From a bacterium (GTDB lineage Bacteria; Patescibacteriota; Minisyncoccia; UBA6257; WO2-44-18): a stretch of 64,000 nucleotides of DNA. The position numbers and the translations under genes are program-made. The stretch covers positions 76,092 to 140,091 of the forward strand of contig JAUSKF010000002.1 in assembly GCA_030646995.1 (NCBI GenBank), given 5' to 3'. Position 1 is the stretch's first letter, and each line of letters begins with the position of its first letter. The notes beneath the pieces were generated by a model. The model worked only from the letters and a program-made list of their open reading frames with translations, had not been told where the DNA came from and searched no databases. Of the stretch, positions 5,724 through 58,439 are shown piece after piece.

Positions 5724-5734
5724 AAAATAAAGAC

Positions 5735-11674: not shown

Positions 11675-11704
11675 TAAATAAGTCGTAAAAAAATAAAAAC
11701 TTAA

Positions 11705-12163: not shown

Positions 12164-12195
12164 AATAACGAATCAAGAATCATGAATTATGGAAA

Positions 12196-12218
12196 GGCGT
12201 CCACCCGGACGTTTTTTC
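12196..12218 (+). terminator. rho-independent terminator
   Basis: CGTCC-ACCC-GGACG followed by TTTTTT. Confidence 0.6.
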
Positions 12219-12355
12219 ATTCGTCAGGGGAGTGGCTTTCTGATTTATGAGGTACCTGTCGCAAAACCCTTCTTGTGCGACACTACCACTAATTCAAGCT
12301 GGGCGCTCCCCGACCTACTAATGCCGGTTTTTTCCTGTTATTATTTAGATGTTTT

Positions 12356-23540: not shown

Positions 23541-23566
23541 CCCCCTCATTGAGGGGGTTTTTGTTG
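23541..23566 (+). terminator. rho-independent terminator
   Basis: CCCCCTC-ATT-GAGGGGG + TTTTTGTT. Confidence 0.7.
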
Positions 23567-23629
23567 CCAAAGCTATTTTTTTCTGGTAAAATAACTCCGG
23601 TTACTTTTACAAGAAAAGAGGAGGCTAGA

Positions 23630-24910: not shown

Positions 24911-24916
24911 CCCCAT

Positions 24917-24951
24917 CCCCGTGTTCAACGCGTTGAACACGGGGATTTTTT
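24917..24951 (+). terminator. rho-independent terminator, member of the CAACGCGTTG hairpin family
   Basis: CCCCGTGTTCAACGCGTTGAACACGGGG perfect 28-nt palindrome + TTTTTT. Confidence 0.75.
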
Positions 24952-24953
24952 AT

Positions 24954-24989
24954 ATAACACTTATGTCCTGGTCAGGATATAAGTGTTAT
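24954..24989. promoter_or_regulatory. 36-bp near-perfect palindrome (candidate operator) between fadA terminator and fadB start
   Basis: ATAACACTTAT-GTCCTGGTCAGGAT-ATAAGTGTTAT, nested inner palindrome TCCTG..CAGGA. Confidence 0.4.
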
Positions 24990-25064
24990 ATTTTCATTCT
25001 TGATTTTTCGTTGAGTTCCTGTTATTTTAAGTTCGGTTCGTTCACAAACGAAAGGGAGAAAATA

Positions 25065-27080: not shown

Positions 27081-27089
27081 TAACCTCAA

Positions 27090-27116
27090 GCCCCCTTTTC
27101 AAAGGGGGTTTTTTGT
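27090..27116 (+). terminator. rho-independent terminator
   Basis: CCCCCTT-TTCAA-AGGGGG + TTTTTTGTTTT. Confidence 0.7.
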
Positions 27117-27153
27117 TTTAAAATAGCTTCGGTTCCTTAATAAGGAGAAAGAC

Positions 27154-29139
27154 ATGGACGTTGCCAAGTCTTTGGGAGCGGGAGTGGCGATTGCAGAAGC
27201 AAGTCGCGACAAAGAAAAGCTGGCCAGTCTGATGCCGGATATTTTCCGGGGAAAGTTGGATGTCAGTTATTTCGAAGATCTTCCGAAAGACACTTTGTGC
27301 GATTTGAAGTTCCAGGCGAACTATCGAAAACTCGAGGAATTTTTGAAAACGGAAGTCGATCCGAATGAGATCGAGAAAACCAATGAAGTTCCGAAAGGGG
27401 TCTTGGATTGGCTTTGTGAAAATGGCTACTTCGCTCTGAAGTTGCCGGAAAAGTATGGCGGTATGAATCTGTTGCAGTCCCAGTATATGGCGCTGCTTCA
27501 GCTGACTGCCACGCGTTGCGGAGCGCTCGTTGCTTTGCTTTCTGCCTCCAACACCATCGGTGTCGGTTGGCCGATCATGGCTTTCGGCTCTCCGGAACAG
27601 CAGGATACCTGGCTTCCATTGGTTGCTAAGTCCCCTTCCGGATTCGCCTTCACTGAAGAAAAGGCCGGTTCCGATCCTTCCAGTATGGAAACCCATGCTG
27701 TGCGGGTTCGCGAAAACGGTAAGGTGGCCGGTTACCAGATTAGCGGTCGCAAGTGGTGGACCACTAACGGCCCGGCCAGCGACAATTCCTATCTTTCCAA
27801 GGTGATCATTGTGATCGCCAAGATCGTGGATTATCCGGATCAGCTTTCCGATTTGGAATACAAAAAGAATCCCGTTTTCGGAGCTTTTATTGTTCCGACT
27901 GGTTCTCCGGGAGTAAAGGTTGTTCAGAGATGTGAGTTCCTCGGTTTGAGGGGCATCTACAACGGCATCACGGACTTCGAAAAAGTCTACATTCCGCTCG
28001 AACAGCTGATCGGGAAGAAGACCGATTCCAGCGGAAAAACCGAATACTATCAGGAAGGTTCCGGTTTCCGGATCGCTTTGCAGGCGCTCAACAGCGGCCG
28101 AATCACGGTCTCCGGTTGTTGCTCTGCAACTGCCAAGATCGCTCTGCAAGTCGAGCGTTGGTGGGGTCTTACCCGCCATCAGTGGGGAAAGCAGATCGGC
28201 CAGCATGAACTTGTTGGCACCGGAAAGCTTGCCGAAGGCGTCGCGAAAGCTTTTACGATGGAAGCGATGACCTGGTTTGCCGCCGGTCGCGCTGATAAGC
28301 ATCTGGATTGCCGGATGGAGGCCGCGACTGCCAAAGTCTTCAATTCCGAACAACTCTGGCAGATCGTTGATGATCTGGCGCAGATCCGTGGTGGACGAGC
28401 CTACGAAACTCCGGAATCTCTGAAGAAGCGAGGCGAAGCGCCGATCCCAGTTGAAAGAATGATCCGCGATGCTCGGCCGAATCGAATCTTCGAAGGCGAA
28501 TCCTCGATCCTTGGACTGTTCGTAGTTCGTGAAGGAGTTGAGGAATACAAGGCGCAGGGTGAAATCTTCTTTGAAAAAGGCCGGTACGGAAAGAAAATGA
28601 AGGCCGCTGTTGGCTTCGCGAAAGAACTCGCTAAGCTTTCTATCCCGAACTTTAAAATGCGTTCACAAATCAAAAAGTTCTCGAAGGATTGGCCTCAGCT
28701 TGCGAAGCACCTACTTCACGCAGATAAGTGCGCGCGGAAGCTGGCAAAAGCGATCATTATCATTTCCGGTAAGTACCAGGCCAAGCTGATGCATAAGCAG
28801 CTGACCCTTACCCGGTTCTTCAATATCGCCACCGAGATCTACGCGATGGCCGCTGTTTGCGGATACGTGATCAAGGAGTGGCCGGTCCACGCAAAGGCTG
28901 ATCTGGCTGACTTCTATTGCCAGGGAGCCCGCCGTAGGATCGAAAAAGAATTCGCCGCCTTGTCGGACAACAGTGATGCGCTCGGTCGCAAAATTGCCAA
29001 TCTCACTCTAATGAATGGCTACGAAGATTTCCTTACGGACGGCACCATTCCGATGGTTGAGATGCTGGATCTGAAAGATCCCCAGCCTCCGAACCTCATG
29101 CCGCTGCCGCACTCACGCCGTGTTGATCGTAAAGCCTAA
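27154..29139 (+). CDS. long-form acyl-CoA dehydrogenase
   Basis: ACAD N-, middle and C-terminal domain motifs (GYFALKLPEKYGG, FAFTEEKAGSDPSSMET, WWTTNGP, QIRGGRAYE), ~250-aa extra C-terminal domain. Confidence 0.75.
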   Translation: MDVAKSLGAGVAIAEASRDKEKLASLMPDIFRGKLDVSYFEDLPKDTLCDLKFQANYRKLEEFLKTEVDPNEIEKTNEVPKGVLDWLCENGYFALKLPEKYGGMNLLQSQYMALLQLTATRCGALVALLSASNTIGVGWPIMAFGSPEQQDTWLPLVAKSPSGFAFTEEKAGSDPSSMETHAVRVRENGKVAGYQISGRKWWTTNGPASDNSYLSKVIIVIAKIVDYPDQLSDLEYKKNPVFGAFIVPTGSPGVKVVQRCEFLGLRGIYNGITDFEKVYIPLEQLIGKKTDSSGKTEYYQEGSGFRIALQALNSGRITVSGCCSATAKIALQVERWWGLTRHQWGKQIGQHELVGTGKLAEGVAKAFTMEAMTWFAAGRADKHLDCRMEAATAKVFNSEQLWQIVDDLAQIRGGRAYETPESLKKRGEAPIPVERMIRDARPNRIFEGESSILGLFVVREGVEEYKAQGEIFFEKGRYGKKMKAAVGFAKELAKLSIPNFKMRSQIKKFSKDWPQLAKHLLHADKCARKLAKAIIIISGKYQAKLMHKQLTLTRFFNIATEIYAMAAVCGYVIKEWPVHAKADLADFYCQGARRRIEKEFAALSDNSDALGRKIANLTLMNGYEDFLTDGTIPMVEMLDLKDPQPPNLMPLPHSRRVDRKA

Positions 29140-45872: not shown

Positions 45873-46265
45873 TTACTTCTTACATGCCACCCAGTAGTAG
45901 GTGGTGACGCCCGTATTGCCCTTCTGGTTGGCGGGCGCGGACGAAACAGAAACCATGCAATCAGCGTGATCCTTGCAGAACTTCACCAGCGCGGCTTCAT
46001 AGTCTTCGCGAGAGTCAGCGGAAGTCTTCACCTCTACCCGATAAACACCGCCTCCGAGGTCCTTCATTTCCACGTCACTCTTATCTACCGGATCAGCCAG
46101 GAGCTCCGGCTTCACATCGTCCGTCATGGGCCTTTCATCGGCTGGAAGGACAGGCGCAGGAGGATCGGCATAGAGACTCTGCGGAGAGAACCAAGCGAGG
46201 CAGAGCAATGTCAGCGCGGCGAGACAACAAACGGCGGCAAGAGCGTTACCGAGGAAATTCTTCAC
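45873..46265 (-). CDS. small secreted Cys-containing protein (130 aa)
   Basis: Signal peptide then ...YADPPAPV...; the overlapping plus-strand ORF is judged spurious. Confidence 0.45.
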   Translation of the reverse strand: MKNFLGNALAAVCCLAALTLLCLAWFSPQSLYADPPAPVLPADERPMTDDVKPELLADPVDKSDVEMKDLGGGVYRVEVKTSADSREDYEAALVKFCKDHADCMVSVSSAPANQKGNTGVTTYYWVACKK

Positions 46266-46342
46266 TGGAATACTCCCTTCATGAAATGAACGTACTAAAG
46301 GGTATTATAACAAAAAAAGCCCCCCAAAACAAGGGGGCTAAT

Positions 46343-47944
46343 CTATGCCGACACTACCAGATGATCATATGCCGCGAGCGTAAGGAACTCGGGGAACTTT
46401 TCGGAAAATACCATCTCCCGGAAAATCTTTTCGGCGAGGTTAAACTTCCCGCCCGCCCAGGCGGGCAAGCCCCGCAAATCCTGCATCACTTCCTTAATCA
46501 CTTCATCCAAAGCCTTAGCCGAACACATTTCCACGTTGTGCTTCCGCCACTGCCAAATCTGTGCGCGAGAAATCTCTGCCGTCGCCGCATCTTCCATTAG
46601 GTTGTTCAAAGTGACACAACCGACGCCCCGCAGCCAAGCCTCCAGATACTGGATGCCGATACTGACATTACTGTATACGCCATCGCCGCTAATTGCCCCC
46701 TTCGGAACGCGGAGCAAATCTTCCGCGGTGACATGGACATCTTCACGCAAAACATCCAGCTGATTCGGCCCGGGCATTCCCAGATCGAAAATTTCTTTCA
46801 CATCCGGAACATACGCCGGATGAGAAACCCATTTACCATCAAAGCCCAACCCTATCTCACGCGCAGAATCAGCTTTAACTTTCAGGCTATTTGCGATGTT
46901 AACTTTCTCATCCTTGCTGGGACTCTGCGCCGCCATTCCGCCCATCGCGAGAGCTCCCCGCTTATGACAGGTCTCCACCAGAAGATCAGCATACGGAGCG
47001 AGAAAACCTCCGTCCATTTTCAAAGTGGAGCGGTCCGGCAAAACAAAACGCGGATGAGCAGAAAGCTTCTTGATGTAGCTGAAAATGTAGTCCCAGCGGC
47101 CGCAATTCAGGCCAGCCGAATGCTCGCGAAGAGCATAGAGAATTTCTTCCATCTGGAACGCCGCCGGCAAAGTCTCAATCAGCACGGTCGCGCGGATAAT
47201 TCCCCGCGGCAAACCAAACTGGTCTTCAGACCACCGGAAGATTGCATCCCAAAGCATCGCTTCGACAGAGCTCTCCATTTTAGGAAGGTAGAGATAAACT
47301 CCCGTACCTTTATCTACGAGTGCCTGAGCGTTATGGAAAAAATACATTCCGAAGTCGAACAAACTCGCCGACATCGGCTTGCCGTCCACCAGCACGTGCT
47401 TCTCCGGCAAATGCCAGCCGCGAGGACGGAAAAACTGCACAGCTGTTTTTTCTTTCAGCGCATACTTTTTCCTGCCGGTCTCAAAATCAATCTGCCTTCT
47501 TACAGCGTCAAAAAGATTAATCTGCCCGTTGACGATATTCGCCCAAGTCGGAGCATCGGAATCTTCCGAGTCCGCCATGTAGCAATTCGCCCCGGAGTTC
47601 AAAGCATTAATTACCATCTTCCGGCTTGATGCCGGCCCGGTAATCTCCACTCGCCTATCTTCCAGATCTTTCGGAGCCGGAACAACTTTCCATTCGGAAG
47701 TACGAATAACCGTATTGCCGAAAGAAAGGCTACGGAAATCGCCGGTGTCTAGCCTGCGCTGGAAAACATCTCGCCACTCCAAATTTTTCCTGCGAATATC
47801 TCCGAACTCTTTATTAAGTTCGCCAACGAAGCGCAGGGCTTCAGGCGTCAGAATTTTCTCGTCCCCTTCTACCTTCGGACCTCTGACTCGGACGTCAGTA
47901 TTCACAAACCTCTCCTTTTCAATGGACCGAGAAGAGCATATCAA
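46343..47944 (-). CDS. aceB: malate synthase A
   Basis: Contains the malate synthase signature region ...REHSAGLNCGRWDYIFSYIKK...; 533 aa, typical of the A form. Confidence 0.85.
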   Translation of the reverse strand: MICSSRSIEKERFVNTDVRVRGPKVEGDEKILTPEALRFVGELNKEFGDIRRKNLEWRDVFQRRLDTGDFRSLSFGNTVIRTSEWKVVPAPKDLEDRRVEITGPASSRKMVINALNSGANCYMADSEDSDAPTWANIVNGQINLFDAVRRQIDFETGRKKYALKEKTAVQFFRPRGWHLPEKHVLVDGKPMSASLFDFGMYFFHNAQALVDKGTGVYLYLPKMESSVEAMLWDAIFRWSEDQFGLPRGIIRATVLIETLPAAFQMEEILYALREHSAGLNCGRWDYIFSYIKKLSAHPRFVLPDRSTLKMDGGFLAPYADLLVETCHKRGALAMGGMAAQSPSKDEKVNIANSLKVKADSAREIGLGFDGKWVSHPAYVPDVKEIFDLGMPGPNQLDVLREDVHVTAEDLLRVPKGAISGDGVYSNVSIGIQYLEAWLRGVGCVTLNNLMEDAATAEISRAQIWQWRKHNVEMCSAKALDEVIKEVMQDLRGLPAWAGGKFNLAEKIFREMVFSEKFPEFLTLAAYDHLVVSA

Positions 47945-47952
47945 AAAACCTT

Positions 47953-47982
47953 AGATTTAAAAAGCCACCCTCATGGGTGGCT
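47953..47982 (-). terminator. terminator/attenuator hairpin overlapping the nrdJ stop, 36 nt upstream of aceB
   Basis: AGCCACCC-ATGA-GGGTGGCT + TTTTTAAATC on minus strand. Confidence 0.55.
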
Positions 47983-50290
47983 AAATTTCACAAACTCCTC
48001 CGGCACAAGCTGCTTCCTTCGCGCCCTTGGTTTCATCATCCTGCTCATAAAGCACGATATCAGCGAAGTTAATTTCCGGAAGCTTGGCCTTCAACTCCCG
48101 ATATTTTTCTTCAGCGGTTTTTACTACCACCATTTCTCCGGTTTTTTCATTCACGGCTACATCATCCATAATTTCCTCATAAGGAGATTGCACGTAAACG
48201 TTCTGCTCGGAGAAGAAAGCCAGACCACCCACCATATCCCAATTTTTCCTCACCCAATGCACTGCCTCAATCCACTCTTCGGGCTTGATGTAAATCGAAG
48301 CCGAGGGATTGTGCTCGGTATAATTCTCTTTAAGAATTTTCCAATAATCCAGCTGCTGCACGACATTTTTATCGCGGCGGGTAATTGCTCCCTCTGGAGC
48401 TTTGACCACGAAAGTAATCACATAATTCGCCAGAGCACCCGTGCTCTGATAAGCATCAGCTTCATACGGGTATTTCTGCTCTTTAAGCATCTCAAAAATC
48501 GGATCGGTCGCGGACAAACGAGTGCGGCGAAGGTAGTACTTAGCATAGCGGGTATGCAGGCCGGATGCCGAATTGACCAATTGGGAAACAGTTCCGGACG
48601 GCTTCACACAAGTGATTGCCGTCGACTGATTGATGCCAAATCGCTTGGCATATTCCTTATTAACCTCAACGGCCCTTTCCTTAAGCTTTCGCAAGGTCTC
48701 AGGATTACGCACGGCAGGGCAATCCCACTGACCGGTTAGAGAAACGCCAAGAAGGCGCTCTTCGTCACAATTCTCCTTCCACTCTTTGGACAGATATGGA
48801 AAATTAGTAAGGGTCGCCTGATAGGTGCCCATAATGGTCGCCAAGCGTACCTTTTCCAGCAAAGTTTCCTCGGTATCTTCCGCCCGACAAATAACCTCCG
48901 TAAGGTTACAAAACTGTTTGGACTTCAACACAATTTCACCACAAGGATTAGTGCCGCTAGTGGCGGCATCCTTCTCAAAAATTTTCCAGCGCCGAGGAGG
49001 CAGCTGATCTTTCAGGCCCGCCCGATTAAATATGCCCCGTTCACCGGTTCCGCCTTCAGCCAATTGCTGCCATTCTTTCATCAAAACGACGTCAGTCGGC
49101 TTAGAAGCGTAGGCAACCGAGTTGTTGGCCATATGCCGCTGTTTTTCATCTCTCTCCCAAAAACGCTTATCTTTAGCAACGCGCATTTCCAAATCATCAA
49201 GATTGGACAAAGAAAGCATCGCGCTACGACGCACACCTCCCATTTCTACAATCTCTCCGACCTTACAGGCAATATCATGCACATCAATCGGCTTCAATCG
49301 CCTGTCCTGCCGCTCCAAAACTTTGTCGCGGGCAAACTCCATCAATGCCTTCAATGGTCCGGGGCCGGAACTTCTTCCGCCCATGGTATGCAATCTCGCT
49401 CCCATCGGGCGCAGTTCAGAATAATCAACTTCCACGTCCTTACCGTCATACCAATGTCGCATGCACTTCACAAACGCATCCGCCCATCCTTCTTTGCTGT
49501 CTTCTACGACAATTTTTACCTTAGGCTTCCCGGTCTGACGCTTAATCTGCGGAAGTTTTTCAATACTCTGATACTCCACAGAAAAACCGACTCCGGTACC
49601 GCACATCGAGAGATACATGATTTCACCGAAATCCTGAAGCTCCGAAATGGCGATAAACGAACAATTGTATCCGGAAACGTTGGTGGATTCAGCTGCCCCG
49701 CCGGCGCTCCAGAAAAGCCGCATAGACGGCATAACTCGCATATTGAGAACCGCCTCTTTCAAATCACCATATTCTTGGTCGATCATCTTGTTGCCAAGAT
49801 TTTTAAACATGAAATCGAAGTAGCGTTGAACGCTTTCAATCCAAGTTTCACGCCTTCCTTCCGATTCTATCCATCTGGAATACCGGCTAAAAAAAATGTA
49901 CTCGCTAAAATCATCAGAAAAGAATTTTTTACTGTCAGCTACGAGCTGTTTAACTTTCTCGGGCACTTCTTTTTTCTTTTCCCGGACTTCGGCTCGTTTT
50001 TCCCGATAAAGAATGTAGGCCTTGGCGGTCTTGGTATAGTCCAAAAGCATCAAAGTGCGCTCAACGTAATTTTGAATCGTTTCGATATCCAAAATCTCCT
50101 TCGCGGAATGCTCTTTTTTAAGCGCTTTCAGCACCTTGTCGGAAACACGAGCAGCTTCCTCCTCGCCACCTTCTCCTGTGGCATTTAGCGCCTTAAAAAT
50201 AGCGCTGGTAATGCGGCTCTGCTCGAAATCGAGGATTGATCCGTCCCGCTTACGAACTTTGGTAAACATCGTAGTTTCTTTTTTCATCAC
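47981..50290 (-). CDS. nrdJ: ribonucleotide reductase, class II (B12-dependent NrdJ-like) with N-terminal ATP-cone
   Basis: ATP-cone VRKRDGSILDFEQSRITSAI; RNR 10-stranded barrel motifs; C-terminal Cys pair ...ACAGGVCEI. Confidence 0.7.
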   Translation of the reverse strand: MMKKETTMFTKVRKRDGSILDFEQSRITSAIFKALNATGEGGEEEAARVSDKVLKALKKEHSAKEILDIETIQNYVERTLMLLDYTKTAKAYILYREKRAEVREKKKEVPEKVKQLVADSKKFFSDDFSEYIFFSRYSRWIESEGRRETWIESVQRYFDFMFKNLGNKMIDQEYGDLKEAVLNMRVMPSMRLFWSAGGAAESTNVSGYNCSFIAISELQDFGEIMYLSMCGTGVGFSVEYQSIEKLPQIKRQTGKPKVKIVVEDSKEGWADAFVKCMRHWYDGKDVEVDYSELRPMGARLHTMGGRSSGPGPLKALMEFARDKVLERQDRRLKPIDVHDIACKVGEIVEMGGVRRSAMLSLSNLDDLEMRVAKDKRFWERDEKQRHMANNSVAYASKPTDVVLMKEWQQLAEGGTGERGIFNRAGLKDQLPPRRWKIFEKDAATSGTNPCGEIVLKSKQFCNLTEVICRAEDTEETLLEKVRLATIMGTYQATLTNFPYLSKEWKENCDEERLLGVSLTGQWDCPAVRNPETLRKLKERAVEVNKEYAKRFGINQSTAITCVKPSGTVSQLVNSASGLHTRYAKYYLRRTRLSATDPIFEMLKEQKYPYEADAYQSTGALANYVITFVVKAPEGAITRRDKNVVQQLDYWKILKENYTEHNPSASIYIKPEEWIEAVHWVRKNWDMVGGLAFFSEQNVYVQSPYEEIMDDVAVNEKTGEMVVVKTAEEKYRELKAKLPEINFADIVLYEQDDETKGAKEAACAGGVCEI

Positions 50291-50532
50291 TGCTCCTTTG
50301 CTGGATTCGAATTATTAAACTGCTAAACGGAATTATACAGTTTGGGAACGAATTGGGCAACGAGTGATATCTAAATTTTTATATCTTCAGTCTACTCCCG
50401 CTTTTCAAGATTATAGAAGTGCATAAGTACTTTGTCGGTTGTTTTATCCCGCTACGCGGGATCCCGCCTTATTTATATTTAAAAATAGTGCGGCGGGACA
50501 AAATTCGGATTTCATGGTATCATCCAGGCAAT

Positions 50533-51240
50533 ATGGACAATGAAATTTTCCCGATGCGTCTCAATAAATATCTCGCTTGGAAAAAACTGGCTAGCCGCCG
50601 TGAAGCGGACAGGTTGATTTCAGACAAAAAAGTACTCATCAATGACAGGGTGGCGGTTTTGGGTGATAAAGTTTCAGAAAAAGACGTTGTAAAAATCATC
50701 GAAAGAAAGGGTAAAGAAGAACTTCCAAAATTAACCGTCGCACTAAACAAGCCACGCGGTTTGATTTCGGCCATTAATGAGAAGGGCGGCGAAACAATCT
50801 TTGATTATCTACCTCAATACAAACACCTCAACGCCGTCGGCCGGCTAGATAAAGAAAGCGAGGGTTTAATTCTGCTTTCCAACGATGGAGTTCTCACCGC
50901 CGTCGTTACCAGCGAAAAACATCTAATTGAAAAGGAATACGAGGTTCAGGTTTGGGAAAAAATTCAACCGTTGAGTCTTAGGCGCTTAGCGGAAGGCGTT
51001 CTACTGGATGGCAAAATGACTCTGCCGGCCGTAGTAGAGCAGCTAAATGACATGTCTTTTTCGATAGTTTTAAAAGAAGGACGCAAACATCAGATTCGCC
51101 GGATGGCCGCCGAGACACATCTGACAATTAAAAATTTGAAAAGAATTCGTATAGGGAAAATAACACTCAAAGAAATTGAAAAACCCGGCGAATATCGGGA
51201 ACTGAAGCCGGAAGAAGTAAATAAACTAAAAAACGCCTAA
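50533..51240 (+). CDS. rluB: pseudouridine synthase, RsuA/RluB family (S4 + catalytic domain)
   Basis: S4 domain MRLNKYLAW..., catalytic VGRLDKESEGLILLSNDG; start set at internal Met. Confidence 0.75.
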   Translation: MDNEIFPMRLNKYLAWKKLASRREADRLISDKKVLINDRVAVLGDKVSEKDVVKIIERKGKEELPKLTVALNKPRGLISAINEKGGETIFDYLPQYKHLNAVGRLDKESEGLILLSNDGVLTAVVTSEKHLIEKEYEVQVWEKIQPLSLRRLAEGVLLDGKMTLPAVVEQLNDMSFSIVLKEGRKHQIRRMAAETHLTIKNLKRIRIGKITLKEIEKPGEYRELKPEEVNKLKNA

Positions 51241-51257
51241 GGCGGTTTTTAGTTTTG

Positions 51258-51466
51258 GTGCCGCGGGAGGGAATCGCCTACAACTCTCGCCTCGCCGTCG
51301 CTCGGTTCGGTCGCAGGCCGCCCCTCGCGACCCCGCAAGCTTGCGGGGTATCGCTGCGTTCTTCAATATCCCTACGCGAGCCAAACAATTGGCTCGCTCC
51401 CGCCGCTACAAACAAAAAATAAAGCGCCTTTTCGTGGCGCTTTATTTTTCTGTTGTGCCGCGGGAG
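51258..51466 (-). ncRNA. GC-rich multi-hairpin segment ending (minus strand) in a 17-nt duplicate of the tRNA 3' end plus templated CCA (ATTCCCTCCCGCGGCAC-CA)
   Basis: Closed by a 12-bp helix 51262-51273 / 51395-51406; internal perfect hairpins ACCCCGCAAGCTTGCGGGGT and GCGAGCCAAACAATTGGCTCGC; terminators on both sides. Confidence 0.45.
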
Positions 51467-51761
51467 GGAATTGAACCCCCGACGCCAGCCTCTTCCAAAG
51501 GCTAGTTGGACTATCTCATTCCCGTTCTTAAAAACTTAAGAGTGCGGGATCGGGCGCTATTGCAGGATTATTGTTGGGACTCACCTGCTAGTCTCTACAC
51601 CTTCCAGAAAACTTAAACCCTTTCTGGCTCGGCTCGGGATTGTCGTATGCATATTTTACTATACATCCGGTTTTCCCCGAATTCACCCAATTTTTCGATC
51701 CGCATTACTACGGAAGGCCCCAAAGATCTAGGGCTGCGCTCTACCACTGAGCTACCGCGGC
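51467..51761 (-). tRNA. tRNA (inferred Phe, anticodon GAA) interrupted by a group I intron after U33; CCA not encoded
   Basis: Exons fold as canonical cloverleaf (acceptor GCCGCGG/CCGCGGC, D arm TAGCTCAGTGGTAGAGC, T arm GGGGGTTCAATTCCCTC, A73). Spliced anticodon loop is CU|GAAGA. Confidence 0.6.
51507..51729 (-). ncRNA. group I self-splicing intron (223 nt) in the tRNA anticodon loop
   Basis: P1 pairs 5' exon GCCCU with intron GGGGC (U.G at splice site); final nucleotide is G; P/Q/R/S-like elements GAATTCGGGGAAAA, CAATCCCGAGCC, GTAGAGACTAGCAGG, GAGATAGTCCAAC (P7 GACTA/TAGTC). Confidence 0.65.
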
Positions 51762-51764
51762 ATA

Positions 51765-52481
51765 CTAACTAAAATTGTGGTTCTTAACGCCATCTATCCA
51801 GCCAATTATGCGATGGAATAGCTTGGTATCACTTATTCTAACCTGCAAAACCCCATAAGGCAAGCGATTAAATGGCCTCTTTCCCATACTGGATTTACTA
51901 ATTCCAAGATAGGTTTTATTAAAGTTCTCCCTGGGAATACCGGTTGTCTTAACCCAATACTTCAGGGTCGCCTCAGCATTCATATGTTGAAAAATTCTTA
52001 AATTGGCTTTTATTTTCTCGACCGGTACTTTACAAATCTTTTTAATAAACGCCAAGAAGACATTGATTAAAACCGGATCAGCATTAGTAAGACTAATGGG
52101 GTGATATGTGACTTCCCTTCCACCTCTCACAATCGGCCGCTTATACCCCTCCGCCCAGTACAACGCCAAACCGATAAAAAATAGATTCTGAATAGAGATA
52201 TTTGCAATCTCGCCGTGCGCTAATTTCTGGATTTCTTCTTTTCTTTGCAGAGCCAAATGAGTTTGATTTTTATTTCTTTTCAAAAGGCCTTCCAACGATT
52301 TTTGTTTGGACCGATTCTCAATTTTTTCCCTTGCACTCGCGGATAAAACTATGTTTTTCAACCATAGCGACAAAGTAGACTTAGAAATACCAGGCAAGGT
52401 TTTCTGGATTTCGCTATAACTCTTGCCCTGCAACCGTAGCTTAATGGCCGAGAATTTATCATTACGCATTATATATATCAT
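51765..52481 (-). CDS. HTH + LAGLIDADG-like domain protein; candidate free-standing homing endonuclease ending 4 nt from the intron-containing tRNA
   Basis: N-terminal HTH KSYSEIQKTLPGISKSTLSLWLKN; motif FIGLALYWAEGYK resembles a LAGLIDADG helix ending in E-G. Confidence 0.3.
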   Translation of the reverse strand: MIYIMRNDKFSAIKLRLQGKSYSEIQKTLPGISKSTLSLWLKNIVLSASAREKIENRSKQKSLEGLLKRNKNQTHLALQRKEEIQKLAHGEIANISIQNLFFIGLALYWAEGYKRPIVRGGREVTYHPISLTNADPVLINVFLAFIKKICKVPVEKIKANLRIFQHMNAEATLKYWVKTTGIPRENFNKTYLGISKSSMGKRPFNRLPYGVLQVRISDTKLFHRIIGWIDGVKNHNFS

Positions 52482-52529
52482 AGCGCCGTCGTTCGATTAT
52501 ATCAACCCTCCCGCGACACAAAAATCAAT

Positions 52530-52600
52530 AAATAAAAATCCCCGCCACTATGCCATAGCATAGTGGCGGATATAAAAAACAGGCCCTAGGGCCTGTTTTA
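52530..52600 (-). terminator. two tandem terminator hairpins after the SemiSWEET-like gene
   Basis: ACAGGCCC-TA-GGGCCTGT + T-run, then CCGCCACTATG-6nt-CATAGTGGCGG + T-run on minus strand. Confidence 0.6.
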
Positions 52601-52870
52601 TTTTTCCCGATACAAAATGAATTTTTGAGTACAAATGATACCAATCATCACCAAAGCAAAAACGTTGACCCAAATCAAATGAGGATTGTCGAGAACCAAA
52701 CCATAAGCGCACCAGAGGATATGACTGACTAGTGGCCAAGCGGCATAGAAAGCCGTCAGACCAACCTTCTTTTCCCGATAGTGCTTAATAATTTGCGTCG
52801 GCGAAGCCACTGAAAAGAAAATGAAAGTGGCCACCGAAGCCGACCATCCGAGCATATCGGCGAGGGTCAT
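52598..52870 (-). CDS. SemiSWEET / PQ-loop family small transporter (3-TM)
   Basis: 90 aa, three TM helices, PQ-loop-like SPTQIIK. Confidence 0.45.
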   Translation of the reverse strand: MTLADMLGWSASVATFIFFSVASPTQIIKHYREKKVGLTAFYAAWPLVSHILWCAYGLVLDNPHLIWVNVFALVMIGIICTQKFILYREK

Positions 52871-52917
52871 CCGGACTCCTTTTTATAACCAAAGGGTTCT
52901 GCTCGTATTTTAGCTAT

Positions 52918-54093
52918 TTACCGCTCTTTGGCAATCTTCTCGCGGATTTCTTTCAAAAGTTTTTCCATAAAAGAAAGATTGTGGATAGTGGTCAGAATCG
53001 GGCCAAGCATTTCCTTGGCGTTAAAAAGATGGCTAATGTAAGCGCGGGAATAATTGGCGCAAGTATAACAACCGCAATCTTTATCAATCGGATTCTTATC
53101 TTTTCCATAGCGGCCGGATTTTATATTCAAGCGTTCGCCGCGCAGTAAAGCTCCTCCATTCCTTCCTAAGCGAGTCGGCGCTACGCAATCGAAGGTATCT
53201 ATCCCCCGCTTCACCGCTTCCCAAATATCTTCCTCCGAGCCGATTCCCAACAAATGCCGCGGTTTATTTTCCGGCAATAATGGAATCGTCCAATCCAAAA
53301 TCTTATACATATCTTTTTTAGACTTACCCAAGGAACCACCGATGCCAAAGCCATCAAATCCCATTCCGCCAATTAGTTTCGCGCTTTTCAAACGTAAATC
53401 CTTATAAGCTCCACCCTGCACGATACCGAAAAGAGCCTGACTTTGGACTAACGACTTTGGACTAACGACTTTGGACTTGAATGCCGCTAAGCAACGCTTA
53501 GCCCAATTATGTGTGCGCTCCAAAGATTTTTTAGTATATGCGTAGTCATGTAAAGGGGAAGTGCATTCATCAAAGGCAAAAATCAAATCAGCGCCTAGAT
53601 TCTCCTGAATTTTTATAGATTTTTCAGGAGTGAAGAAATGCTTTGAGCCGTCTAAATGCGAACGAAATTCAACTCCGTCATCGGTGATAGTGGTCAAACT
53701 CTGTCCGCGCGGAGAATTTTGCTTGTGCGCAAGCTCGGCTTCCGACGGGAAGATATTCGCAATCTTGCTCACGCCATGTTCAATTGCCGCCCCTAAGCTA
53801 AAGGCCTGAAAGCCGCCGCTGTCTGTCCAGATCGGCCGATCCCAGTTCATAAACTTATGAAGCTTACCAATTCTTTTCACCGTCAAATCTCCCGGCCTCA
53901 AGTAAAGGTGGTAGGTGTTACAAAGCAAAGATTCAGAGCCGATGGCTTTTAATTGATCGGTGGTTAAGCCCTTAATCGCCGCCTGCGTCGCTACGGGAAT
54001 AAAAGCCGGAGTATTAATCACGCCGTGCTTTGTGTGAATTTCTCCAAGTCTTGCGCGGGACTTTTTTGATTTCTTTAAAATCTTAAATTCCAT
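52918..54093 (-). CDS. tgt: queuine tRNA-ribosyltransferase
   Basis: TGT catalytic and zinc subdomain motifs (CGCYTCANYSRAY); contains a 15-bp tandem duplication at ~53447-53490. Confidence 0.88.
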   Translation of the reverse strand: MEFKILKKSKKSRARLGEIHTKHGVINTPAFIPVATQAAIKGLTTDQLKAIGSESLLCNTYHLYLRPGDLTVKRIGKLHKFMNWDRPIWTDSGGFQAFSLGAAIEHGVSKIANIFPSEAELAHKQNSPRGQSLTTITDDGVEFRSHLDGSKHFFTPEKSIKIQENLGADLIFAFDECTSPLHDYAYTKKSLERTHNWAKRCLAAFKSKVVSPKSLVQSQALFGIVQGGAYKDLRLKSAKLIGGMGFDGFGIGGSLGKSKKDMYKILDWTIPLLPENKPRHLLGIGSEEDIWEAVKRGIDTFDCVAPTRLGRNGGALLRGERLNIKSGRYGKDKNPIDKDCGCYTCANYSRAYISHLFNAKEMLGPILTTIHNLSFMEKLLKEIREKIAKER

Positions 54094-54140
54094 AGAATAC
54101 TTAATACTAGCTACTTTCTACTAACTACTAAAATTGTGCG

Positions 54141-54704
54141 CTAGGCGCGCACGATTTTATAAGGCTTCTTTGTCAAGTCTACTATCTTAGAGCCTTTTGT
54201 CTTTTTATTGATACCTGCATGGATAACCGCATCGATCATTTCCGCCGTTTTCTTGAACATTTCCTTATATTGGGAAGGGTCCCTCAACGGATCTTTTCCC
54301 GCAACGTTAGCGCTGGTCGCTATGATTGGCCTATCGAAGTAACGAAACAATTCCTTGGTCCAACGATGTTTGGCCAAACGAAAAGCGCCGGTGTGCTTCA
54401 TCGCCGCCAACGGAGAAAGATTTTTAGCTTTTAAAATGAAAGTGGTCGGCTTCTTAGACTTAGTCATCGCTTTTTTCTGGTCGGGACTAAAAGAAGCGTA
54501 CTCCGCCAACATATTAAAATCTTTAACCAGAATCGGAAAAGCCTTACCAATCTGGCGGCCTTTTATCTGATAGATCTTCAACAGCGCCTGCGGATTAGTG
54601 GCATCACAGCCGAGTCCATACAGAGTTTCAGTCGGAAAAATCATCACGCCGCCGGCATTAAGGATTTGAGTGACTTCTTGAGGTTTTAAGCTTATTTTAG
54701 GCAT
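54141..54704 (-). CDS. tsaC: L-threonylcarbamoyladenylate synthase (YrdC/TsaC domain)
   Basis: VMIFPTETLYGLGCDA...KGRQIGKAFPILV typical YrdC. Confidence 0.8.
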   Translation of the reverse strand: MPKISLKPQEVTQILNAGGVMIFPTETLYGLGCDATNPQALLKIYQIKGRQIGKAFPILVKDFNMLAEYASFSPDQKKAMTKSKKPTTFILKAKNLSPLAAMKHTGAFRLAKHRWTKELFRYFDRPIIATSANVAGKDPLRDPSQYKEMFKKTAEMIDAVIHAGINKKTKGSKIVDLTKKPYKIVRA

Positions 54705-54772
54705 AAGTTAAGTTAACAATGGAAATTATAGCAAAAATCCGCTTAGGTGTCAACCCTAAGCGGATTTGGTGA

Positions 54773-55270
54773 TTACCAGCAAAAAGCGATGAGTCTGATA
54801 ATGAAAATATTGTATAGGAAGTGGCTGAACGATACGGCCGCCAAGGCCTTGAACTGAAACTGGCTCTTGGCGTCCACGCACTTAACAAACAAAAGGCCCC
54901 AAACGAGAAAGAGCACTCCTTGCAAAGCCGCCGCGCAAACAATTGCCATGTTGCGCCCGGCAAAATCACGAAAAAGTTCGTAATGGGCCATTCCAAAATA
55001 AAGACTAGCGGGCAGAGCAACCATCAGCAAAATCCCTACCCTTTTCCGTCCGCAAAGAATTACGGTCAAAGCGATAAGCCACCACTGCGCAATAGCGGTC
55101 TCGCCCAACACGCCCATCATCTGCCCCACCAAATGCATCGCCGACGGAAGATTCCAGTTGATCTCTGGGGGCTCCAAAGAGTAACTCCGAATAATAATTC
55201 CGGTAACCATCAGACCCCAAAGCAAGGAAAAAATCGTAACTGCAAAGCCGATCTTCAACCAAGAGCGCAT
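54773..55270 (-). CDS. polytopic membrane protein, weak CPBP/Abi-like features
   Basis: Hydrophobic 5-6 TM protein, C-terminal SHFLYN (HxxxN-like); start uncertain. Confidence 0.3.
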   Translation of the reverse strand: MRSWLKIGFAVTIFSLLWGLMVTGIIIRSYSLEPPEINWNLPSAMHLVGQMMGVLGETAIAQWWLIALTVILCGRKRVGILLMVALPASLYFGMAHYELFRDFAGRNMAIVCAAALQGVLFLVWGLLFVKCVDAKSQFQFKALAAVSFSHFLYNIFIIRLIAFCW

Positions 55271-55411
55271 ATCGCTCGGGGGACTCTCTAGACAACTCAT
55301 CGCTTCCGACCAACAACTCTTCAACTTGCACATAACTCACCTCATTTTTAATGAACAAATCCAGTATAGTCAGTTGCTCGTTAATAGCAAATATTGTATC
55401 GTTTCCTCATT

Positions 55412-55484
55412 GGTCTCATCGTCTAGTTGGTCAGGACATACGGTTCTCATCCGTAAAACATGGGTTCGAATCCCATTGGGACCA
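55412..55484 (+). tRNA. tRNA-Glu (anticodon CUC), CCA not encoded
   Basis: Cloverleaf with acceptor GGTCTCA/TGGGACC, D arm TCGTCTAGTTGGTCAGGAC, loop TTCTCAT, T arm ATGGGTTCGAATCCCAT. Confidence 0.8.
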
Positions 55485-55649
55485 CAAAACTCAAAATAAA
55501 TCTGGGATTCGAACCCAGCAGCACACCGTGTTGGAAGGCGCTCGGAAACCAGAAGGTGTCCGAGACGGGGGTCGGGGTGCTGCGATAGTGGTTCGGCAAA
55601 CATTAGGCGGCAGCCTCAATGCGCAGCGAAAATCCCATTGGGACCACCA
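55485..55649 (+). ncRNA. structured GC-rich segment ending in a 17-nt duplicate of the tRNA-Glu 3' end plus templated CCA (AATCCCATTGGGACCAC-CA)
   Basis: 7-bp helix GCAGCAC/GTGCTGC enclosing hairpin CTCGGA..TCCGAG; T-arm-like TGGGATTCGAACCCA on the opposite strand. Confidence 0.45.
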
Positions 55650-55652
55650 AAA

Positions 55653-56615
55653 TTACGAGATCAACTTCTTCAACTCTTCCACCATCGGAACATTTTCCGG
55701 GTCAGCTCCGTATGCTTCAGCTAGGTAAAAAGCGGTCCAATCCGCCAAAAGAGTGCTGGAGAATATTTTCTCCCAAACATTACCGCCGGTCATTTCAATT
55801 TCTTCAACACCAAATCCCCTGTCCCGATAAAGCTTAGCGGTCACTGCCATCCGCTTTCCGATGCGCGGATGATCTTCTGAATCGCGCAGGAAAATAAAAT
55901 GGAAATTTTCCGCGATTGGTTTTGCTTTTGGCGCGCAATCAAAGCCGGTCATTTCGTTGTGATTCAATTCCGGAAACCGGTTGGCGAACGCCGGAATTTT
56001 CGCCGTTTCGTTAAATTTTATTTTCCAATTATAAGCGACGGGCATATTCACCCGCGAAGTATAAATAACCGGAACTTTTCCCACCAACTTCTCCGCCAGC
56101 TTCTTTCCGGCAACTTCGGACGGCTTGGTATTCAATTTCGCCACGGCGGCGATCTCTTTCAACGCCTCATCCATCCCCAATAGCGCCAAAATCGCCTTTA
56201 TGCTGAAGCCCGTAGCCATTCTGGGCTGGATACCGTCCGCCGGCAATTCAACGTAAGGCAAACCTAACTCCTTCGCTTTCGCCAGCAACTTCCCTCCCGC
56301 GGCCACCACTGCAACCGCCAAGCCAAATTCTGTCGCCGTCTCCATAGCGCTCAAAGTTTCTTCAGTATTTCCGGAGTAAGAACTGGCGATCACCAAAGTG
56401 CGGCTCAAATCGGCTTCAGCAATTTCCGGCAGGCCATAATCGCGATGGATCACCAGGTCCAGCAATGGATTCCAAACTTTCAAAAGATCCGCTCCCAAAC
56501 TGGAACCGCCCATTCCGGCAACTACAAATTTGCTGTATTGATGCAGTAAATCTTCGTTCTCTATTTTCGGCGCCCAAGCAAACTGCTTGGGGAAATTTTG
56601 GATCGCTTCTTTCAT
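55653..56615 (-). CDS. bifunctional phosphoglucose/phosphomannose isomerase (SIS-domain, archaeal-type PGI/PMI)
   Basis: SIS motif VVAGMGGSSLGADLL, two SIS halves, ~320 aa. Confidence 0.6.
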   Translation of the reverse strand: MKEAIQNFPKQFAWAPKIENEDLLHQYSKFVVAGMGGSSLGADLLKVWNPLLDLVIHRDYGLPEIAEADLSRTLVIASSYSGNTEETLSAMETATEFGLAVAVVAAGGKLLAKAKELGLPYVELPADGIQPRMATGFSIKAILALLGMDEALKEIAAVAKLNTKPSEVAGKKLAEKLVGKVPVIYTSRVNMPVAYNWKIKFNETAKIPAFANRFPELNHNEMTGFDCAPKAKPIAENFHFIFLRDSEDHPRIGKRMAVTAKLYRDRGFGVEEIEMTGGNVWEKIFSSTLLADWTAFYLAEAYGADPENVPMVEELKKLIS

Positions 56616-56629
56616 TGCCTAATTATAAC

Positions 56630-56660
56630 AAAAAGCCTCCCTCTTGCGAGGGAGGCGCTA
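56630..56660. terminator. bidirectional terminator
   Basis: GCCTCCCTC-TTGC-GAGGGAGGC. Confidence 0.65.
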
Positions 56661-56663
56661 AAG

Positions 56664-58238
56664 TTACTTCGGATTCTGATCGTCCTTCTTTTCCTGTTTT
56701 TGGTTCTTCACCATCCACTTCATCAGGTTGCCCATCATTCCTTCGTTATCGCCGCTCCCACCCCAGAAAGTGCCCTCGTTGGAAGGCATCCAGACGAAGG
56801 TGGTATTAGCCGCGATGGCCTTCGCGAACTCATAGCGAGCCAGCGATTCACCGCCTCCGAAAGCCTCGGTCATCACCTTGGTGCCGTCAGCGTCCGCCTT
56901 CTTCTTGAGGAAGATGACGTCCGCTTCAGCCGTGCCTCGGGCAACCGTGTTTTCGGCTTCCTTCTTGGCGGTCTGAAGATCAATTTCCGCCACCGCCAGC
57001 TTTTGCTTCGCCTGCGTCTCGGCAACCATCTTTGCCGTCTCGGCCTCGATCTGCTTCTTACGCTGATCGATCTTGGTCTCCTCTTCCATCCGCGCCGCGT
57101 CCGCTTTCGCCTTCTCCATCTGCTCCTTCGAGCGGAGGGTTTCCTGACGAGCGACCTCGGCTTCCCGGACCGGCTTGCGTAGTTCTTCCGGAACCTCGAT
57201 TTTCCGCACAAGGCAACGCAGAATTTCAATACCCTTCTCCACGCACACCCTCTTCATCTCTGCCAGGAAGGCGTGTTCAAACTTCTCACGACCGATGCCC
57301 TGGATGAATTCCTTGGCGCCATACTTCGATCCCTCGACTCGAGAGATCGAGCGGGTGTTCTGCACGATCACCTTACGATCCAGCGCCGCGATGTCGCCCT
57401 GATCCTGAAAAACCTTGGCGATCAGATGCTCGTTCACCTGCCACTCGACGGCCACGTCGAATTCGATCGTGAATCCGTCGTTGGAGGGGAACTCGATTGC
57501 ATCGTTAGCAGGGCCGGTCCCGTCGCTGTGAAACTCGGTCACCTGCGTCTGGGTACTCATTTGTGTGACCTGATACATGTAGGGGTTCATGAAGTAGGTG
57601 CCCGAACCGAGCACTTTTCCCTGAACACCTTTCTGTCCCTCGGTGGCCAGCTCCTGATCTTCTGGCGTTTTCTCACCAGACTTGGCAGTCACCACGCCCA
57701 CGAAGCCGGCGGGAATCTTGATCGAGTCCACCTTCTCCAGCTTGTACATCGTCGGATGGACACGATACCTGCCGGGGCCAAGCACCTGGGCCAACGGGCC
57801 CTGATAGTCGCTTTCCGGCAGACCGAATTCATTGGCCTTCTTTACCGGGGCCACGACCATTCCATTGGGCATCGTAGCTCCGAAACGCTGGTGCAAGACG
57901 CCGATCTGTCCTTCCGAGATCTCTTCCATCTTCACCGCTTCGGCTCTCCGACCCCAACGGAAGTAAAGAGTAAAGCCCTGTGAATGGATCTCTTGGGTCG
58001 GGCCGCGCTGGCCCGCCTGAGCCAGGTTCTGGCCCGCCGGCAAGCTCTCTCCGAACCGATTTACGAAGTAGTAGAACTCATCCTGATCGGGAAGGAGCCA
58101 GCCGACCGGACTCGCGACCACGAGGATCAGGAGCAGGCCAAGCAGGGTTCCACCGAAAACAGCAAGCTTCTTCTGCAATGAGGTCACTGCAATCTCCTTG
58201 AAAAGAACGGCTTCTGCGCGATTAACCCATCGCGCCAT
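56664..58238 (-). CDS. SPFH/band-7 (flotillin/YqiK-like) membrane protein with long coiled-coil C-terminus
   Basis: N-terminal TM, SPFH core, Ala/Glu/Lys-rich coiled coil; start set at MARWVNR. GC-rich alternative-frame ORFs inside are judged spurious. Confidence 0.75.
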   Translation of the reverse strand: MARWVNRAEAVLFKEIAVTSLQKKLAVFGGTLLGLLLILVVASPVGWLLPDQDEFYYFVNRFGESLPAGQNLAQAGQRGPTQEIHSQGFTLYFRWGRRAEAVKMEEISEGQIGVLHQRFGATMPNGMVVAPVKKANEFGLPESDYQGPLAQVLGPGRYRVHPTMYKLEKVDSIKIPAGFVGVVTAKSGEKTPEDQELATEGQKGVQGKVLGSGTYFMNPYMYQVTQMSTQTQVTEFHSDGTGPANDAIEFPSNDGFTIEFDVAVEWQVNEHLIAKVFQDQGDIAALDRKVIVQNTRSISRVEGSKYGAKEFIQGIGREKFEHAFLAEMKRVCVEKGIEILRCLVRKIEVPEELRKPVREAEVARQETLRSKEQMEKAKADAARMEEETKIDQRKKQIEAETAKMVAETQAKQKLAVAEIDLQTAKKEAENTVARGTAEADVIFLKKKADADGTKVMTEAFGGGESLARYEFAKAIAANTTFVWMPSNEGTFWGGSGDNEGMMGNLMKWMVKNQKQEKKDDQNPK

Positions 58239-58242
58239 CGGG

Positions 58243-58262
58243 TTGTCCCGCAAACGGGACAA
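58243..58262. promoter_or_regulatory. perfect palindrome TTGTCCCG-CAAA-CGGGACAA 4 nt upstream of the SPFH start codon
   Basis: Seen directly. Confidence 0.4.
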
Positions 58263-58298
58263 TGGCAATAAAGTAGCAAGAAATCTTATTAAAGTCAA

Positions 58299-58439
58299 GG
58301 GCTCCGGCCAATAGCCCCTCGGAAACGGCATAATTTGCTTCCAGCGAGCAAATTTGCCTCTCCCTCGCTTCGCCACTTTAGATAAGACCAAGCTGGCGAA
58401 GCTCCGGCATGTTCCTCGAAGCTATTGGCCTGCGCTTTG
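58299..58439 (+). repeat. 141-bp full-length member of the structured repeat family, in the divergent SPFH / membrane-protein promoter region
   Basis: Shares both ~50-bp arms with 21179-21327. Central hairpin differs in sequence but keeps pairing. End pairing GGCCAATAGC/GCTATTGGCC covaries with GGGAATAG/CTATTCCC of the other copies. Confidence 0.7.

Follow-up and report, generated by a model that had tools for sequence, protein, structure and literature searches.

The stretch of DNA analyzed here, 64,000 nucleotides of contig JAUSKF010000002.1 (assembly GCA_030646995.1) and hereafter called the window, carries on its minus strand the gene aceB for malate synthase A (MSA) at 46343..47905 (520 aa, GTG start, TAG stop). 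The gene sits within an uninterrupted open reading frame (ORF) that spans 46343..47944 on the same strand and contains HSAGLNCGRWDYIFSYIKK. This ORF scores 660.2 bits against TIGR01344, the NCBIfam equivalog model for MSA (cut-off 594.5; model positions 1–510 of 511), and its product reaches only 21.8 bits with the isoform G model NF002825. The Pfam set that defines MSA (PF20656, PF01274 and PF20659) is found in order on the 533-aa ORF, with MS_N at residues 17–69, MS_TIM-barrel at 171–412 and MS_C at 420–529, and the product aligns end to end, without breaks, with the enzymes of Bacillus anthracis (PDB 3CUX, E = 5.5e-162) and Escherichia coli (3CUZ, E = 4.5e-146). An earlier note on this DNA had assigned the gene from a signature, which is present, and had named a hidden frameshift or truncation as the flaw that could undo the assignment; the domain order and the continuous alignments reveal neither, leaving an ORF that is intact from end to end. 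By every sequence criterion that we tried, aceB is a member of the MSA family, and it is an ordinary one that GenBank already annotates correctly, since MDO8466737.1 ('MAG: malate synthase A [bacterium]', where MAG denotes a metagenome-assembled genome), from a 162,177-bp contig, matches the 520-aa product at 100% identity.

The catalytic base of E. coli MSA is Asp447 (PMC3112382), with which Asp439 (520-aa numbering) of the window's enzyme, lying in LMEDAATAEISR within the C-terminal domain, is aligned; the catalytic-base motif MEDAATAEISR is conserved. The motifs LIETLPA, NCGRWDYIFS and RPRGWHL are likewise identical or conservatively substituted relative to E. coli and B. anthracis. Going by MSA and isoform G structures, these motifs should hold the Mg2+-ligand Glu and Asp and the enolate-stabilizing barrel Arg. 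The ORF is thus predicted to encode a functional MSA that converts glyoxylate, acetyl-CoA and H2O to (S)-malate and CoA. In its length (520 versus 528–533 aa), its three domains and its active-site motifs it resembles the E. coli and B. anthracis enzymes, with no structural difference, whereas its host, a member of the Candidate Phyla Radiation (CPR), and its position outside an aceBAK operon set it apart.

Because homology to relatives begins at GTG 47905 and not at TTG 47944, because a Shine-Dalgarno sequence (AAGGAGAGG, 47909..47917, minus strand) lies 3 nt ahead of the GTG, and because the resulting product equals MDO8466737.1, GTG 47905 is very probably the start and TTG 47944 the wrong one. 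The in-frame extension up to that TTG (47906..47944, minus strand) is probably an untranslated 5′ region, which holds the Shine-Dalgarno sequence and overlaps a −10-like element described below. It follows that the spacer between aceB and the upstream gene nrdJ measures 75 nt and not the 36 nt given in the earlier note.

The nrdJ-like gene (47981..50290, minus strand) encodes, as had been claimed, a class II-type ribonucleotide reductase, RTPR-like in its Pfam domains and with an N-terminal ATP cone (ATP-cone, RNR-II_ins_dom and RNR_Alpha). Its score with the monomeric RTPR model TIGR02505 is 272.6 bits, below the cut-off of 340, and in GenBank the protein (MDO8466738.1) is named merely 'ATP cone domain-containing protein'. 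The same arrangement of an RTPR-like reductase with an N-terminal ATP cone is kept in all relatives. Directly at the end of nrdJ lies an intrinsic-terminator-like hairpin, AGCCACCC-ATGA-GGGTGGCT followed by TTTTT (47958..47982, minus strand), which is the best match of our terminator scan; the second-best match, AGCCCCCTTGTTTTGGGGGGCT followed by TTTTTTT (46311..46339, minus strand), comes after aceB, and the two best terminator-like sites within 45.5–51 kb therefore flank the gene. The GC-rich hairpin proper after nrdJ (47982..47963) has 8 pairs, 6 of them GC, and overlaps the nrdJ TAG stop codon (47983..47981) by 2 nt. This overlap had been correctly noticed, but the hairpin is not the sole content of the spacer, which also contains the T-run, the Shine-Dalgarno sequence and a predicted extended −10-like element for aceB, TGATATGCT (47935..47943, minus strand).

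The −10-like element emerges as an aligned hexamer column when the nrdJ–aceB spacers of the window and six related genomes are compared, and this column is common to all seven. A GC-rich hairpin and T-run directly follow nrdJ in 6/7 spacers, those of the window and five of the six relatives. At the −10-like column, the spacers of loci L085, L087 and L002 carry TGnTAT[AG]CT, and those of L082 (TAAGCT), L090 and L092 (both TAAGAT) contain a full TTGAAA-N17-TAAG[CA]T; in all seven, the hexamer is followed by a conserved 5′ untranslated region with a Shine-Dalgarno sequence, and the relatives conserve the leader motif GGTCCATTGAAAAGGAG. Within the window, the next gene is preceded by the same layout, a T-run leading into TGnTAnnnT (46312..46304).

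The reading that aceB is promoterless, being read through from nrdJ with the stop-codon hairpin as an attenuator, draws on the shared strand and short spacer of the two genes, on the overlap of the hairpin with the stop codon, on the retention of the nrdJ–aceB adjacency in at least nine genomes, and on a standard −35/−10 scan, which finds no promoter in the window's spacer. Nevertheless, it appears improbable. With its T-run, the hairpin looks like a plain terminator, the 75-nt spacer offers neither an alternative antiterminator pairing nor a leader peptide, and an Rfam scan of the whole window at gathering thresholds returns only tRNA-Glu, with no riboswitch or leader element between the genes. 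The reading is also at odds with the −10-like hexamer of all seven spacers, with the full promoters of L090 and L092 and the conserved leader that follows, and with the repetition of the T-run and TGnTAnnnT layout ahead of the next gene. In addition, making deoxyribonucleotides is not known to be functionally linked to making malate. Since a conserved −10-like element and then a Shine-Dalgarno sequence come after the terminator-like hairpin, transcription of aceB on its own is likelier than read-through or attenuation, with the spacer hairpin probably serving as the nrdJ terminator and aceB probably possessing its own promoter.

On its other side, aceB is followed by a 77-nt spacer (46266..46342, minus strand) that forms a synteny breakpoint, as relatives have a gene for isocitrate lyase (ICL) or an ICL-like protein at this point. 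In the window, the position of the lyase gene is taken by an ORF for a 130-aa hypothetical protein with a hydrophobic N-terminus (45873..46265, minus strand; G+C content (GC) of 0.562), ahead of which the sequence reads as an extended −10-like element, TGTTATAAT (46304..46312, minus strand). The 130-aa ORF has no Pfam or NCBIfam match, and next come an amidohydrolase gene, ftsW and murG; neither mraY, ftsW, the amidohydrolase gene nor the 130-aa ORF occurs in any of the related loci compared. Conversely, the block that lies downstream in relatives (LOG, ABC transporter, DUF5671, FAD oxidase, cupredoxin, Ham1 and AP endonuclease) is missing from the 64 kb. The claim that the window holds no isocitrate lyase proved correct: tblastn with the canonical proteins of L085 and L002 and the short form of L082 returns matches only at E > 1, and an ICL pseudogene or remnant in the window is ruled out, since nothing falls below E = 1 with either form.

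Every close relative shares the order (Band 7–PGI–TsaC–Tgt)–pseudouridine synthase(−)–nrdJ–aceB–X–LOG(−), and the nrdJ–aceB junction with its spacer motifs is kept in at least nine CPR genomes from different samples. The upstream part of this order is found in the window at 50419..58391 (pseudouridine synthase, a helix-turn-helix protein, a semiSWEET-like ORF, Tgt, TsaC, tRNA-Glu, PGI/PMI and Band 7), where tblastn against L082, L090 and L092 gives 70–91% identity in unchanged order; for housekeeping genes, L082 is the closest relative of the window. X is a canonical ICL (KKCGH loop, 487 bits with TIGR01346) in L085/L086, L089 (where the contig ends within aceB), L090, L092 and L002, and a 355–390-aa protein of the ICL/PEP-mutase family in L082–84 and L087. 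The aceB and ICL genes, on the same strand, abut or overlap in L090 and L092, and in most relatives a terminator and a promoter-like element stand between aceB and the lyase gene. Ten further metagenome loci have aceB directly ahead of the ICL-like gene, and the adjacency is found in at least 12 populations. In L087, a GIY-YIG endonuclease ORF (121 aa, 4846–5211) separates the ICL-like gene from aceB, whose 3′ end it overlaps; the break in the window's genome falls at the very junction where this mobile element sits.

The missing member of the pair is found elsewhere. A protein of the same sequencing run as the window's aceB (SRR13727527), MDO8466839.1 ('isocitrate lyase/PEP mutase family protein [bacterium]'; P0249 in our set), is encoded at 4719–5822 of locus L093, on a 181,176-bp contig, in the order ScpA–ScpB–S11 peptidase–MraY–two small ORFs–ICL-like–LOG(−). 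Its accession falls in the series of the window's own proteins, in which MDO8466... ends in 685 for L2, 737 for aceB and 738 for nrdJ on the 162,177-bp contig and in 839 for the ICL-like protein, 841 for MraY and 844 for ScpA on the 181,176-bp contig. In tetranucleotide composition, L093 correlates best with the window (r = 0.933), and its LOG is closest to that of L082 (89% identical). Among the best matches to a relative's canonical ICL, none is assignable to this MAG, and only the short MDO8466839.1 was found, with the 64-kb window and 6.7 kb as the genome sequence covered. Run, accession series, composition and LOG similarity place the ICL-like gene in the same MAG as aceB, and the earlier description of aceB as stand-alone, though true of the window, does not extend to the genome.

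The leader of the relocated gene, TTTAGAATATTCTCAGTTC, matches the TAAGATATTC[CT]ATAGTTC of the relatives and is therefore conserved, and because the gene keeps this leader motif we place the breakpoint after the aceB terminator and before the lyase promoter. The two new joins, aceB|...ftsW-murG and mraY...|ICL-like, are what a single inversion through the dcw cluster would give; such an inversion may have split the pair and at the same time cut the mraY...ftsW-murG cluster.

The partner belongs to a small and distinctive group of proteins. A family search with two short ICL-family proteins yields about 100 clusters at or above 273 bits, with the next matches at 111 bits, and an exhaustive search of 1.84 billion proteins finds only about 6 full-length representatives at 50% clustering. 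Members (among them L093 4719–5822, L082 11677–12744, L087 5286–6458 and loci L094–L113) are about 355–390 aa long, mostly share an RRCGN loop and NYSPNKDW, and are seen only in CPR-type contexts, often directly after aceB. A JGI metagenome protein, P0151 (811 aa), has precomputed matches to hemerythrin, to ICL, and to the TIM-barrel and C-terminal domains of malate synthase; this could be a natural ICL–malate synthase fusion or a gene-calling artefact.

Overall homology of the short family to ICL is secure, as hhalign pairs it with canonical ICL over 304 columns at a probability of 99.75% (E = 2e-27). In going from canonical ICL to the short family, SGW becomes GGW, DAEAGFG becomes DAETGFG, KKCGH becomes RRCGN and NCSPSFNW becomes NYSPNKDW, while EDQ and RTDA are unchanged and the Thr of TLAG corresponds to an invariant Thr. 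The Cys of the catalytic loop is invariant in the short family, deeper members keep CGH, and the loop of the partner itself reads TRRCGN. In the Mycobacterium tuberculosis ICL structure, these positions are the ones that contact glyoxylate and succinate. An AlphaFold model of the partner (pLDDT 92.9) is a TIM barrel that Foldseek matches to 3FA3, 7CMY, 6C4A and 9HHY with E-values of 1e-19 to 1e-17; ICL structures cover the largest part of the query (TMq 0.72–0.74), the lowest E-value belongs to 2,3-dimethylmalate lyase, and identity to any solved structure is 17–23%. Compared with the ICL/PEP-mutase lyase branch as a whole (ICL, PrpB, 2,3-dimethylmalate lyase and oxaloacetate acetylhydrolase), the partner shares the TIM barrel, the Mg-binding DAETGFG and EDQ motifs and the loop Cys, and with ICL specifically it shares the NxSPxxxW and RTDA motifs. 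It departs from the branch in having, as do the Paceibacteria-type members of its family, RRCGN instead of KKCGH or KRCGH and in lacking the ICL insertion and C-terminal tail (367 versus about 430–480 aa). As the short protein replaces ICL slot for slot and retains these motifs, it may well make the glyoxylate that aceB uses. The source of glyoxylate, which the earlier note had left without an answer, is thereby largely resolved: in relatives, aceB is followed by ICL or the short lyase, and in this genome the short form stands on another contig, with its activity a prediction.

An alternative is that aceB encodes a truly orphan, functional malate synthase that draws glyoxylate from a source other than ICL, with the ICL-like protein unrelated to it. 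Candidate sources would be a GlcD/YdiJ-like FAD oxidase acting on glycolate or a 2-hydroxy acid, purine or ureide breakdown, or glyoxylate from the host. The ICL-like protein does lack the His of KKCGH and scores below all NCBIfam cut-offs, and several genomes carry its gene without aceB. A GlcD/YdiJ-like FAD-linked 2-hydroxy-acid oxidase is indeed encoded 3–5 kb downstream in the same block of relatives, on the minus strand (L082 15020–16618, L090 15953–17584, L092 15790–17421 and L002 approximately 11533–13170). Additionally, in the non-CPR locus L088 (8400–11593), a 58%-identical MSA follows allantoicase and ureidoglycolate lyase, and this layout shows that MSA can be fed by ureide breakdown independently of ICL. 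In E. coli, glcB of the glc operon provides a malate synthase that works without ICL, via glycolate. The window, by comparison, has no allantoicase, ureidoglycolate lyase or glycolate oxidase, and its enzyme is isoform A rather than G; the FAD-linked oxidase is likewise absent from it. Furthermore, the slot behind aceB that canonical ICL fills in some sister genomes is precisely the one that the ICL-like gene fills in others, as expected for a functional replacement, at least 12 populations have aceB directly ahead of the ICL-like gene, and the ICL motifs that contact glyoxylate and succinate are kept. We regard the orphan explanation as unlikely and favor the ICL-family protein as the partner. 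A few kb beyond aceB–ICL–LOG, the relatives also encode a cupredoxin and a Gmad2 protein, both absent from the window; together with the FAD oxidase, this block could possibly be an alternative glyoxylate source or an electron outlet.

The sequence of aceB was also compared with those of its homologues. Of the 134 columns with at least 97% conservation across 121 homologues, 6 are changed in the aceB product, and 3–27 are changed in relatives with an adjacent lyase; the mean distance of the product to non-CPR enzymes is 0.648, and those of the relatives range from 0.58 to 0.80. With no excess in the conserved-column count or in the distance to the outgroup, relaxed selection on aceB finds no support; synonymous sites have already reached saturation at an amino-acid identity of 70%. 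A decaying relic, freed from selection by the loss of its partner and on its way to becoming a pseudogene, is consequently a very unlikely description of the gene. What speaks for decay is that the partner is no longer adjacent and that aceB evolves faster than its neighbors (50–70% identity to relatives, versus 72–91% for nrdJ, Tgt, TsaC and pseudouridine synthase), but this difference is lineage-wide and not a property of this genome alone. The full-length ORF with all its catalytic motifs, the intact Shine-Dalgarno sequence, −10 element and terminator, and the continued presence of the partner in the genome all oppose it, as does a number of conserved-column changes inside the range of the relatives.

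The malate synthase phylogeny that the earlier note had suggested was built as a neighbor-joining tree of 128 MSAs, in which the window's enzyme, P0002–P0007 and the proteins of L090 and L092 form a 9-member clade made up solely of these genomes. Other CPR MSAs form separate basal branches, and the tree does not establish that CPR aceB genes as a whole are monophyletic. Compared with typical bacterial MSAs, the CPR clade shows greater divergence, with a mean distance of about 0.65 versus 0.45 among the others, and the closest non-CPR homologues, at 55–58% identity, are only slightly more distant than the CPR ones. This last point, together with the GC of aceB (0.517), of the 130-aa ORF and of the beta-oxidation genes described below (0.505–0.522), all above the window mean of 0.466, might be taken to mean that aceB, perhaps with the beta-oxidation genes, was mis-assembled or mis-binned from a bacterium with a larger genome or was acquired very recently by horizontal transfer. 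We consider such an origin extremely improbable. L001, a Logan assembly made independently from the same run, reproduces the identical join of pseudouridine synthase, nrdJ, aceB, the 130-aa ORF, amidohydrolase and FtsW, the nrdJ–aceB junction with its spacer motifs recurs in the CPR genomes from different samples noted above, and the tree places the product in a clade of these genomes only.

The host background agrees with the earlier note's view of a reduced genome. The window is normal chromosome, with a ribosomal protein operon that includes SecY, Adk and Map; it also codes for a Mur ligase, YchF, Alr, SerRS, an Asp/Asn-tRNA synthetase, GreA, GluRS, MurG and FtsW, and for Tgt, TsaC, an archaeal-type PGI/PMI and pilin-like proteins. 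The L30 gene is absent between S5 (7118–7690) and L15 (7695–8177), a loss that is reportedly a hallmark of CPR. Relatives with 70–91% identical nrdJ, Tgt, TsaC, PGI and pseudouridine synthase are labeled Patescibacteria group, Parcubacteria group or Candidatus Paceibacterota, and one relative (60%) is labeled Saccharibacteria, in conflict with the Parcubacteria/Paceibacterota labels of equally close relatives. Because L30 is absent and the relatives carry CPR labels, the reduced-genome CPR background is real.

The beta-oxidation genes that the earlier note had pointed to are present about 17 kb from aceB as a complete-looking cluster on the plus strand (23549..29139; identified with Pfam and NCBIfam), comprising a thiolase (23549–24910), a FadB/FadJ-like hydratase-dehydrogenase (24894–27080) and a long acyl-CoA dehydrogenase (27154–29139) whose C-terminal domain is of the ACAD9/VLCAD type. 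Their GC at third codon positions (GC3) reaches 0.60, and they occur in none of the related CPR loci compared; a gene for an AAA_28 ATPase (22420–23532) adjoins the cluster. A survey of freshwater CPR found fatty-acid beta-oxidation in no group (PMC9166423), and the cluster is unusual for this reason, in line with the earlier remark that making malate from acetyl-CoA and glyoxylate is unexpected for a reduced genome. As a source of acetyl-CoA for aceB, the cluster is plausible.

The window has several further features. A 785-aa VirD4/TraG-like type IV coupling-protein ATPase is encoded at 16744–19101 (minus strand), flanked by ORFs without family matches (15123–15950, 16059–16658 and 19372–19788). 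Within the upstream syntenic block, the 90-aa semiSWEET-like ORF (52601–52870, minus strand) is 69% identical to the MtN3_slv protein of L082. The Band 7/SPFH protein (56664–58391, minus strand; 575 aa, GC3 of 0.705) has a syntenic homologue of 308 aa in L092, and it may be an extended copy or have its ORF start listed too early.

The structure of the locus and its relatives provides a likely explanation for the isolated aceB, namely that it is a functional, independently transcribed gene and one half of a lineage-wide two-gene glyoxylate module that was split by rearrangement, with its partner in the same MAG. In a lineage of Parcubacteria/Paceibacteria-type CPR, the module takes the form Tgt–(pseudouridine synthase)–nrdJ–aceB–[canonical ICL or short ICL-family lyase]–LOG. 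A rearrangement in the 77-nt spacer after aceB would have separated aceB from the lyase gene, so that the short ICL-family gene, its own promoter-like leader retained, now follows mraY together with LOG on the 181-kb contig, and aceB would be transcribed alone, between two terminator-like hairpins, from the −10 element in the 75-nt spacer. The ICL-family protein would supply glyoxylate, the beta-oxidation cluster would supply acetyl-CoA, and malate synthase would join the two. Enzyme identity and integrity, the conserved synteny, its break and the presence of the partner elsewhere in the genome are observed; the origins of glyoxylate and acetyl-CoA, a working promoter and a single inversion we infer from them. 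The arrangement in relatives, with aceB followed by a co-oriented canonical ICL gene, resembles the aceBA(K) operon of Enterobacteria as one shunt module. Here, by contrast, the pair lies on two contigs, no ICL gene adjoins aceB, no aceK is seen, and in this genome and its closest relatives a short ICL-family protein replaces canonical ICL.

A number of points weigh against this explanation. The aceB promoter is a sequence prediction, and some read-through of the nrdJ terminator is possible. The partner is not a canonical ICL, as the His of KKCGH is replaced by Asn; the short family lies below every NCBIfam equivalog cut-off, and its close homologues in L082 and L087 score 42.9 and 54 bits with TIGR01346, for which the cut-off is 275.9. 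The ICL-like gene occurs without an adjacent aceB in about 5–6 populations, and its coupling to aceB is therefore not obligatory. Placement of both genes in one MAG follows from accession order, sample, composition and phylogenetic consistency rather than from an assembly record. The outgroup used for the rate comparison was picked by similarity to the aceB product, which biases that test. Finally, no tricarboxylic acid cycle enzyme that makes isocitrate or consumes malate or succinate is encoded in the 64-kb window.

A broader proposal is that, in a Paceibacteria-type lineage, a small CPR-restricted subgroup of the ICL superfamily has taken over from canonical ICL the task of forming glyoxylate for malate synthase and, together with beta-oxidation, provides a minimal route from fatty acids to C4 acids. 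We put this forward tentatively, as a possibility on which we would not yet rely. If it is true, ultra-small bacteria could turn host-derived fatty acids and an imported or salvaged tricarboxylate into C4 acids, and the window's aceB would be the still-working half of a module after a genome inversion. A capacity to convert fatty acids to C4 acids is generally regarded as absent from CPR. Our search of the full-text literature on malate synthase, isocitrate lyase and glyoxylate in CPR found no description of this module.

For aceB itself little changes, as it looks isolated because of a rearrangement and because only 64 kb are in view. Metabolic models of CPR/Patescibacteria should take into account that one lineage keeps a module of malate synthase and an ICL-type lyase beside nrdJ. 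Because the partner fails the ICL models, KEGG-style calls would score this genome as 'aceB only', and the same blind spot may explain calls of a 'partial glyoxylate shunt' elsewhere (e.g. PMC12114108). The more interesting by-product lies outside the window, in a small, uncharacterized, CPR-restricted subgroup of the ICL family that standard pathway models miss.

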